Origin: a virus
Lineage: Duplodnaviria > Heunggongvirae > Uroviricota > Caudoviricetes
Length of the DNA stretch: 49,338 nt
IMG/VR virus record: IMGVR_UViG_2721755725_000012
Strand: one strand, 5' to 3'
Shown one piece after another: positions 42,001-45,000 of the stretch (positions are counted from its first letter, which is position 1; every line of letters starts with the position of its first letter). Made by a program: the position numbers.

Positions 42001-45000
42001 AATATTCAGAACTGTGGCTGCGCATACGGGCCACCAGCAAAGGCGGCATCGCCTTTTCGATCGCCGGTAACAGAGCCTGCATTTTTTCAACAGCATCAGG
42101 GGTGTCTTTATCCAGCCAACGGAAAATTTTCTGGGTATTACGGGCCAGGGCTTCCGGATGGCTGTCGTCATACAGTTCCGGGAACGTCATTCCCAGCTCG
42201 AAATACGCTTTGGTAATTTTCGCAGCCGGTACTTTTTCGCCGTCCGGATGCGCCCAGACATTCATCGCCATGCGGATGTGTTCATGCTTGATTTTCATGA
42301 ATCAACTCCATCAGATAAGCATGCACTACAATCACCTTCAGCATGAACTACATGTGTTTGCCCCAAACGAATGCCGCTCGCATACTCAGGCCAAATAAGC
42401 TCCCAATCATGGGGTCGTAGCTCCGCCCTACTTACTTGGCCTTCCGTCGCAGATTCGATCATAAGGGCGCGGGTTGGAGATATAGCTGTTCGTCCAGACG
42501 CCATTTGCGATAAGTAAGATGACGATACACCAAGTCTGGCCGCGAATTTCTTAGCATCACCAACCCTTAATGATTTAATAAACTCTTTTAATGTCATACC
42601 TTCCTCGGTTTAGTGTTTTTTTGCGAGTTTAGTGTTTAATAAACCATTAAGTCAAGTATTTGCTTGTTTAGTGATTACTAAAGATAATTACCACATGCAA
42701 AAAAAAGAAATTCGCCGTTTACGTCTCAAGGAGTGGTTTAAAGATAAAACTCTGCCACCCAAAGAGAAGAGCTACCTATCTCAACTAATGAGTGGGAGAG
42801 CCTCGTTTGGAGAAAAAGCTGCCAGAAGAATAGAGCAAACATACGGGATGCCGGAAGGGTATCTGGATGCGGAATACGCAGAACAACCGGGGGTTTCTCC
42901 ACCACATGCAGGGTTAACGTCTAATCAACTGGAATTATTGCAGATTTTTTCAGCCTTCCCTGAGGATGAGCAACGCCAGATAATCAGCGAGTTAAAGCAG
43001 AAAAAAGAATCAATGGAAGATCTCATAGCGAGATGGATTGCGGCGCAAAAATGCCGCCGCGCCTGAGTTATAAAACCGGAGGAAACATGAATAGAGCCCT
43101 TTCACCAATGGTTTCTGAATTTGAAACCATTGAACAAGAAAACAGTTACAACGAATGGCTGCGTGCGAAAGTAGCAACGAGCCTTGCAGATCCGCGCCCA
43201 GCAATTCCCCATGACGAAGTTGAGCGCAGAATGGCAGAACGCTTTGCTAAGATGCGCAAGGAACGGAGCAAGCAGTAAAATGTTACCCGTGTTATGGCTT
43301 GAAAGCGCAGATACCGACCTAGATGATATAACTAGTTATATTGCTCGTTTCGACATAGATGCGGCTGAACGCTTATGGCAGCGATTAAGGGGTTGTGTGC
43401 TGCCGTTATCCGAACATCCGTATTTATACCCACCAAGCGACAGAGTACCTGGCTTGCGTGAGATTGTAGCCCACCCTAACTATATAATTCTATACCGCGT
43501 AACAACATCAAGCGTTGAAGTAGTAAACGTGATCCACGCAAGACGCCAGTTTCCCTAACTTTCACTACCAATAGAAACATAACAACCGCAACGACTTTAT
43601 CAAAAGCGTTGTGTTTGTTATGTCCCGCGGTTTAGTTTTTACTTGACTTAAGTTTAATGTTTATTAAACTAAAAATACCAACCCACCCCGCCCCACAGAA
43701 CGCAGGGAAATACTTCGAGTTACCCGGCAGTGGTCAGGGGTTAAGTATCCAGCCCGAGGCGTATGAACATGACGGCAGGGTTCAACTTTAATAACTATGC
43801 AGCAGGTTTTTGTTCCGCTACCCCGGCGTTAAGGGGAAACAGAGGGTTTCTCAGTGGGCGAAGTCAAACATCAGAATGGAAGGCATCCCGGGATCGGCAA
43901 AGAAGCAGCAATGGCGCTTTATATTGACATCAGCGCCATTGCAGGACAGGTAAGAGTTATCAGAGCGGTAACTAAGCGGTATGCGCCTTTACTTCAGAAA
44001 GTCTCTGGTGAGTGCACCGAAGATATTGTCAACGATTTCGTCATCGAACTGCGAGGACTCATCTTCAGTTTACAAGGTGAACCACAATTTTTGCAGATGG
44101 CTCCCGCGAAACTGTCAGAGCCCTGCGGCTTAAAGGATGTGTCAAAGACTTCGCCACCACATTCTGGGCAAGAAAACTTGATTGTATTCATAACCAATTT
44201 CCTCTCGAGTAACAGACCCCTCAGAGGATACCACCTCGCCTGACGTGGTTAAAAGCAGGCAACGCTAACCACAAGGAGCCGACATGCAGAAACGAGAACC
44301 CGTCATCATCGCGCCAGACTATACCGATGATGAACTTTATGAGTGGATGCACCAGAAAATTAATGCAGCGCAGGATCTGAAATGGGCCAATGAAGCCAGG
44401 GCTAAGCAGGCTGAAAATCTGTCCGCTCTGGAGCAGGATATCACCAATCTGGAAAAAGCAGCGGCATTAAGCATTGCCAGAATGATTACATACCCGCGTT
44501 AATAGCTAACCAACGAAGCTAAGGTTGGTAATTAAGGAGTTCTCCACGGGTGAGGTGGAGTGCGTGCGCCGGACACGGGTGAGCATACGGCACTGACAGT
44601 TTACTGAAAGGATATTTCCCTGAAAAGTCAGACCATAACGCGAAATGGCGCGGCGGTAAGTATGGAGGGGTTATTCCTTCCCCCGTTGAGGACACCGGGT
44701 TGTCAGGTTGACCATACGCTTAAGTGACAACCCCGCTGCAACGCCCTCTGTTATCAATTTTCTGGTGACGTTTGGCGGTATCAGTTTTACTCCGTGACTG
44801 CTCTGCCGCCCTTTTTAAAGTGAATTTTGTGATGCGGTGAATGCGGCTGAGCGCACGCGGAACAGTTAAAACCAAAAACAGTGTTATGGGTGGATTCTCT
44901 GTATCCGGCGTTAATTGTTAACTGGTTAACGTCACCTGGAGGCACCAGGCACCGCATCACAAAATTCATTGTTGAGGACGCGATAATGGAAACGTTATTA

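Follow-up and report, generated by a model that had tools for sequence, protein, structure and literature searches.

The window analysed here, the whole 49,338-nucleotide stretch of the Caudoviricetes record IMGVR_UViG_2721755725_000012 from IMG/VR, almost certainly carries the published paaR2–paaA2–parE2 module, a three-component type II toxin–antitoxin (TA) system, within the immunity region of a lambdoid prophage. We assign it to the published module because its PaaA2 and ParE2 are identical to proteins of solved structure, as are the N-terminal part of its PaaR2 and the neighbouring YdaT. Inspection of the sequence alone had originally led to the prediction of a ParDE-like TA pair immediately downstream of the prophage repressor. 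The core of this reading is supported, and detailed knowledge of the feature already exists, with solved structures, a described mode of regulation and an addiction phenotype. Nothing that we found contradicts the identification. In itself it adds little, since it rightly identifies once more a module whose structures and genetics have been characterized before.

The antitoxin open reading frame (ORF) occupies 43087–43278 on the plus strand and encodes 63 amino acids, with its ATG at 43087 and its TAA at 43276–43278 in both the ORF list and the raw sequence. A GGAGG motif (43078–43082) lies 4 nt ahead of the start codon. The toxin ORF occupies 43280–43558 (ATG at 43280, TAA at 43556–43558) and consists of 92 amino-acid codons and a stop, 93 codons in all; the corresponding GGAG motif (43265–43268) lies within the antitoxin gene. 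The antitoxin stop codon and the toxin start codon are separated by one base (43279), which is typical of translational coupling. Upstream, the repressor gene (42695–43066) has the same orientation as the other two and ends 20 nt before the antitoxin start. The original prediction was thus exact in its coordinates, codon counts and 1-nt spacer, and correct in placing the pair directly after a prophage repressor. Both ORFs can be taken as genuine genes rather than chance ORFs, because their Pfam scores are above the cut-offs, they are 100% identical to solved structures and the 472-bp pair recurs among complete Escherichia coli genomes (842 of 5426 contain it, 586 of the 5426 at an identity of at least 99%).

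The toxin is identical in 92 of 92 residues to chain B of PDB entries 5CW7 and 5CZE, described there as `Plasmid stabilization protein ParE', and scores 60.9 bits (E = 1.9e-16) against the Pfam family ParE_toxin (PF05016), for which the curated cut-off is 23 bits. The predicted ParE/RelE fold is borne out by this match and by the identity to ParE2 of E. coli O157. The RefSeq product names `RelB family antitoxin' and `RelE/ParE family toxin' would rather suggest a RelBE-type module in which the toxin is a ribosome-dependent mRNA interferase. In agreement with these names, the antitoxin reaches 84 bits with NCBIfam model NF050103 (`RelB family antitoxin', cut-off 50 bits), and RelE and ParE belong to a single fold superfamily. 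The toxin itself, on the other hand, obtains 21.4 bits with the mRNA-interferase model TIGR02385 (RelE_StbE), which is below its 27.9-bit cut-off and contrasts with the score for ParE_toxin. The phenotype reported for ParE2 of the O157:H7 locus is co-localization with the nucleoid and induction of the SOS response, not translation arrest (PMC8630535). We therefore give next to no credence to a RelBE-type module.

Residues 2–63 of the antitoxin are identical to PaaA2 in PDB entries 3ZBE, 5CW7 and 5CZE, so that the small upstream ORF proves to be an antitoxin as expected. Its score against the Pfam PaaA2 family (PF21217) is 70.7 bits (E = 1e-19, curated cut-off 27 bits). In a profile search at E ≤ 10 this was the only family recovered, with no match to any ParD, Phd or RHH family. 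The profile search that had been proposed as a check consequently confirms a ParE toxin but finds neither of the two antitoxin families that had been named. PaaA2 is a truncated ParD without the DNA-binding domain; it is mostly disordered in its free form and wraps around ParE2 in the manner of a ParD C-terminal domain (PMC8251345). The description `ParDE-like' is therefore fair in structural terms, but the antitoxin is a truncated, ParD-like toxin-binding peptide and not a ParD or Phd protein. This peptide is disordered and has two helices, and in its complex with PaaA2 the toxin is held inert. According to the title of Sterckx 2016, the PaaA2–ParE2 complex cooperatively assembles as a hetero-hexadecamer. 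Toxicity and rescue by the antitoxin have been published for sequences that match this pair exactly (Hallez 2010, as cited in PMC8630535 and PMC4803016).

The same data bear on the possibility that we are dealing with a canonical ParDE operon, of the kind found on plasmid RK2, in Caulobacter crescentus (ParDE1) and in Vibrio cholerae (ParDE2), in which case the repressor ahead of it would be a phage gene with no connection to the pair. The ParE toxin fold is common to both kinds of system; the toxin matches ParE_toxin and, weakly, other ParE proteins of known structure (3kxe and 5ceg, for example). A canonical ParDE operon is difficult to reconcile with an antitoxin of only 63 residues that matches no ParD, Phd or RHH profile and has no DNA-binding domain, regulation being exerted by PaaR2 instead (PMC8630535, PMC8251345). 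In addition, ParE2 differs from the canonical toxins in that it is reported not to interact with GyrA (PMC8251345), and paaR2 and the TA pair show equal genome counts. This explanation is already largely refuted and we regard it as very improbable.

PaaR2 was read from the ATG at 42695 and has 123 amino acids, with MQKKE as its N-terminus. Residues 1–66 are identical to PDB entries 7NKV, 8C3K and 8C3L, entitled `Phage repressor protein CI', which represent the PaaR2 N-terminal domain. No Pfam family scores above its cut-off for this protein, and its C-terminal part weakly matches the DicA model. In the published system the operon begins with paaR2, the gene for its regulator, so that paaR2–paaA2–parE2 is a three-component system (PMC8630535, PMC4803016), and regulation is delegated to PaaR2 as PaaA2 lacks a DNA-binding domain (PMC8630535, PMC8251345). 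The window contains all three elements of such a system: a ParE-family toxin, a PaaA antitoxin directly upstream of it with a 1-nt spacer, and a separate paaR gene further upstream in the same orientation. The repressor is thus a functional component of the module, its regulator and first cistron, and not a mere neighbour. At an identity of at least 95%, the number of complete E. coli genomes with paaR2 is 593 and that of genomes with the TA pair is also 593, counts that were not compared genome by genome; their equality would fit a joint transfer of all three genes. For a near-identical locus it has been published that the genes are co-transcribed and that PaaR represses them (PMC8630535); the promoters and operators are conserved in the window, as described below.

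The closest characterized relative is the module of prophage CP-933P (Sp12) of E. coli O157:H7 (Hallez 2010; Sterckx 2016; Jurenas 2021). The PaaA2 and ParE2 proteins are 100% identical to those encoded there, and the 472 bp of DNA of the pair are 100% identical to those in O157:H7 genomes. Gene order, the 1-nt and 20-nt spacers, the 97-bp OR region, the PL/OL region and the divergent ydaS–ydaT genes are likewise the same. The 1848 bp that extend from ydaT to the PL region contain four substitutions relative to one O157:H7 genome. In the direction from O157:H7 to the window these are P26S in YdaS, a silent change and G67V in PaaR2 (the latter being the sole amino-acid difference in this protein) and one OL base at position 43630.

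The control elements of the CP-933P immunity switch can be recognized on both sides of the module. The intergenic region between ydaS and paaR2 (42598–42694), equivalent to OR, has promoter and operator matches and is 97 bp long, which is exactly the length published for CP-933P (PMC8630535). When the 49-kb window was scanned with the operator palindrome GTTTAGTN4ACTAAAC, allowing up to three mismatches, four matches were obtained and all fall in two control regions. Two 18-bp palindromes are located in OR (42627–42644 and 42666–42683) and two operator-like 18-mers (43630–43647 and 43652–43669) in the equivalent of OL/PL933P on the plus strand (43630–43670). A repeat analysis recovers the same operator family, GTTTAGTG. 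A PR-like promoter on the minus strand (TTGACT at 42655–42650 and TAAACT ending at 42626) and a PL-like promoter on the plus strand (TTGACT-16-TAAACT, 43643–43670), which is directed away from parE2, use the same two hexamers. PR933P and PL933P have been described likewise (PMC8630535). From our own reading of the raw sequence, the putative PRM promoter would consist of TTGCTT (42660–42665) and GATAAT (42683–42688) separated by 17 nt, so that transcription would start (+1) with the first base of the paaR2 start codon and the transcript would be leaderless. Leaderless translation of paaR2 has been reported (PMC8630535).

The genes ydaS (42295–42597) and ydaT (41873–42298) are both located on the minus strand, divergently from paaR2, and a gene resembling a replication initiator lies beyond them. 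YdaS matches the Pfam families YdaS_toxin and HTH_3, while YdaT contains a Pfam YdaT_toxin domain and is 100% identical over residues 2–141 to the CP-933P YdaT in PDB entry 8bt1. The YdaT operator OM, TTGATTTTCATGAATCAA, is found at 42288–42305 at the ydaS/ydaT junction, the place to which the motif and its role have been mapped (PMC9986795). It is the only match to TTGATTN6AATCAA in the window, and none was seen in 100 shuffled sequences. The OM site is where PRE933P, an alternative start of the operon, is located, and YdaT is the CII-like activator of this promoter (PMC8630535, PMC9986795). Transcription of the operon can accordingly begin either at the PRM-like promoter, giving the leaderless paaR2 mRNA, or at the YdaT-activated PRE-like promoter (PMC8630535, PMC9986795). 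YdaS is the Cro analogue and competes with PaaR2 for overlapping operators, resulting in two heritable expression states and hence a bistable switch (PMC8630535). The Pfam names imply that YdaS and YdaT form a further TA pair. We rejected this candidate because the literature on near-identical proteins shows them to be Cro-like and CII-like regulators and not a TA pair (PMC8630535, PMC9986795).

Between the parE2 stop codon and OL, a hairpin with 22-nt arms and a 3-nt loop (43577–43623, plus strand) was identified both as an inverted repeat and by RNA folding. Its predicted energy of −24 kcal/mol (z = −4.8) was not equalled in any of 200 shuffles. It may be the operon terminator or a 3′ stabilizer, in a position of the lambda t_imm type. 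Either function is put forward tentatively, because a scan for T-run terminators returned no terminator after parE2 and missed the hairpin, which has no T tract.

The overall layout corresponds to that of lambda cI–rexA–rexB, where a leaderless repressor gene is likewise followed by two co-transcribed accessory genes, and the divergent Cro-like and CII-like genes, the operators flanking both sides and the bistable switch are shared as well. There is no sequence similarity, and the accessory genes are a TA pair instead of RexAB. PaaR2 is a CI analogue that is made from a leaderless mRNA and octamerizes, but unlike lambda CI it has no autocleavage domain and is unresponsive to SOS (PMC8630535).

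As to function, the role of the module would be one of addiction, through which it would stabilize the immunity region and the prophage. ClpAP and ClpXP degrade PaaA2 (PMC8630535), and ParE2, which survives, therefore poisons cells that lose the locus. The locus has been reported to stabilize an unstable plasmid via post-segregational killing (PMC8630535), and the authors of PMC8630535 propose that the TA system stabilizes the immunity region against rearrangement. The location of the pair also brings to mind a prophage exclusion or abortive-infection module, the main task of which would be to kill or arrest cells upon superinfection. The pair occupies the exact position of lambda rexA–rexB, an equivalence to rexAB that is noted in PMC9986795; in lysogens it shares a transcript with the repressor, and it is expressed in both states of the switch without detectable self-toxicity (PMC8630535). 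The module is also present in the sequenced phage Evi. Set against this, PaaR2, PaaA2 and ParE2 had no matches among the PADLOC models at E ≤ 0.001, the only phenotype demonstrated is plasmid stabilization through post-segregational killing (PMC8630535) and we found no phage challenge data. A module devoted mainly to exclusion is in our opinion quite unlikely.

A related speculation, which we consider unlikely as well, is that ParE2 might be released in response to a superinfecting phage, for instance through shut-off of host transcription or through Clp-dependent loss of PaaA2, and might thus bring about abortive infection or exclusion; alternatively, the module might act as a lock that kills recombinants in which the immunity region has been swapped. 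The superinfection trigger comes to mind because the pair sits in the rexA–rexB slot and is expressed together with the repressor in lysogens.

Three caveats attach to the transfer of the published description to this prophage. Firstly, single-cell work detected no activation of ParE2 in either transcriptional state (PMC8630535). Secondly, the switch could behave slightly differently from that of O157:H7, because PaaR2 has V67, YdaS has S26 and the OL base at 43630 differs. Thirdly, the backbone is not that of CP-933P but that of an O111-type prophage next to potC. Positions 1350–49338 of the window are 99.6% identical to a prophage that lies directly beside potC in E. coli O111:H- 11128. This backbone is the more complete one: int, xis and exo are intact in it, whereas insertion sequence (IS) elements have turned exo and int into pseudogenes in the O157:H7 copy that we examined. 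We considered whether the window is simply coordinates 1436038–1485375 of O111:H- 11128 and rejected this: the identity is 99.6% over 1350–49338, and alignment is lacking for the first 1349 bases. At the corresponding end, the O111:H- 11128 genome carries the nleL effector gene.

The combined immunity and TA cassette moves as a unit between lambdoid backbones, as is shown by its nearly unchanged presence on CP-933P of O157, on the O111-type prophage at potC and in Escherichia phage Evi. In the latter it is 98.3% identical, with ParE2 identical, a K55R substitution in PaaA2 and the substitutions G66E and V67I in PaaR2; the parE2 ORF is intact in the Evi record yet unannotated. The related paaR1–paaA1–parE1 module of CP-933M in E. 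coli O157:H7 shares the arrangement of three genes and the protein families (PMC8630535, PMC4803016), and this paralogue does not cross-neutralize (PMC4803016). A tblastn search revealed no second paaR, paaA or parE copy in the window. A match of about 68% identity at a second place in O157:H7 genomes is probably the CP-933M paralogue.

The RefSeq labels of these genes lag behind or contradict the experimental literature: paaR2 is a `hypothetical protein', PaaA2 a `RelB family antitoxin' and YdaT a `toxin YdaT family protein'. In the case of YdaT, the label `toxin' is contradicted by experiments that identify a CII-like regulator (PMC8630535).

It had further been claimed, on the basis of a hok gene elsewhere in the window, that the prophage carries two toxin systems of different types. 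A hok sequence is indeed present, but `two' overstates what is intact, because the gene is split by IS1203. This element (36027–37336, 1310 bp) has 25-nt terminal inverted repeats, a match to the ALIL pseudoknot and a 3-bp ATC target duplication. It interrupts hok (minus-strand locus, 35903–37541) between codons 11 and 12, such that codons 1–11 are found at 37340–37372 and the remainder at 35903–36026. When IS1203 and the 3-bp duplication are removed in silico, a Hok protein of 51 amino acids, MKQQKAMLIALIVICLTVIVTALVTRKDLCEVRIRTGQTEVAVFTAYEPEE, is restored. The match to the sok RNA (37366–37541, minus strand) is intact, and 1.3 kb now lie between it and the bulk of the hok gene. No intact hok frame contiguous with the 5′ regulatory region and sok is left in the window, and from its sequence hok is thus a pseudogene here. 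The 46-residue `Hok/Gef family protein' that RefSeq lists in the O111 relative begins inside the IS end.

A Qin-type cluster for the inhibition of cell division lies downstream of PL at 44284–45100. It comprises ydfC (44284–44502), the small RNA DicF (44760–44811, 76.7 bits with Rfam) and dicB (about 44986–45174); these are additional functions toxic to the host that are located in this arm of the prophage and subject to PL-type control. Upstream of this cluster, a 67-residue ORF on the minus strand (43994–44197) contains two CxxC pairs (MVMNTIKFSCPECGG...KNCGSPC). The corresponding position is annotated in the O157:H7 copy as `ECs_2282 family putative zinc-binding protein' on the same strand, and in the O111 relative as a frameshifted hypothetical gene on the plus strand.

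Two convergent, overlapping genes (37929–39026 on the plus strand and 38986–39564 on the minus strand) are situated between the replication genes and what is left of hok. In the O111 relative they are named `beta family protein' and `sce7726 family protein', and with PADLOC they give matches to PD-Lambda-2_C (E = 1.4e-40) and `cll' (E = 2.4e-28). From these matches, the pair may represent prophage-borne anti-phage defence genes. In the remainder of the window, Rfam places the small RNAs AgvB (anti-GcvB) at 31201–31260 on the plus strand and STnc100 at 31262–31470 on the minus strand. Two tRNA genes follow on the minus strand at 31583–31656 and 31740–31812, which according to the annotation of the O111 relative are specific for Ile and Arg. 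Finally, a tandem repeat of 4.3 copies of a 162-bp unit (18159–18850, 96% matches) is situated in what the annotation of the O111 relative gives as a portal protein gene that is frameshifted and split.

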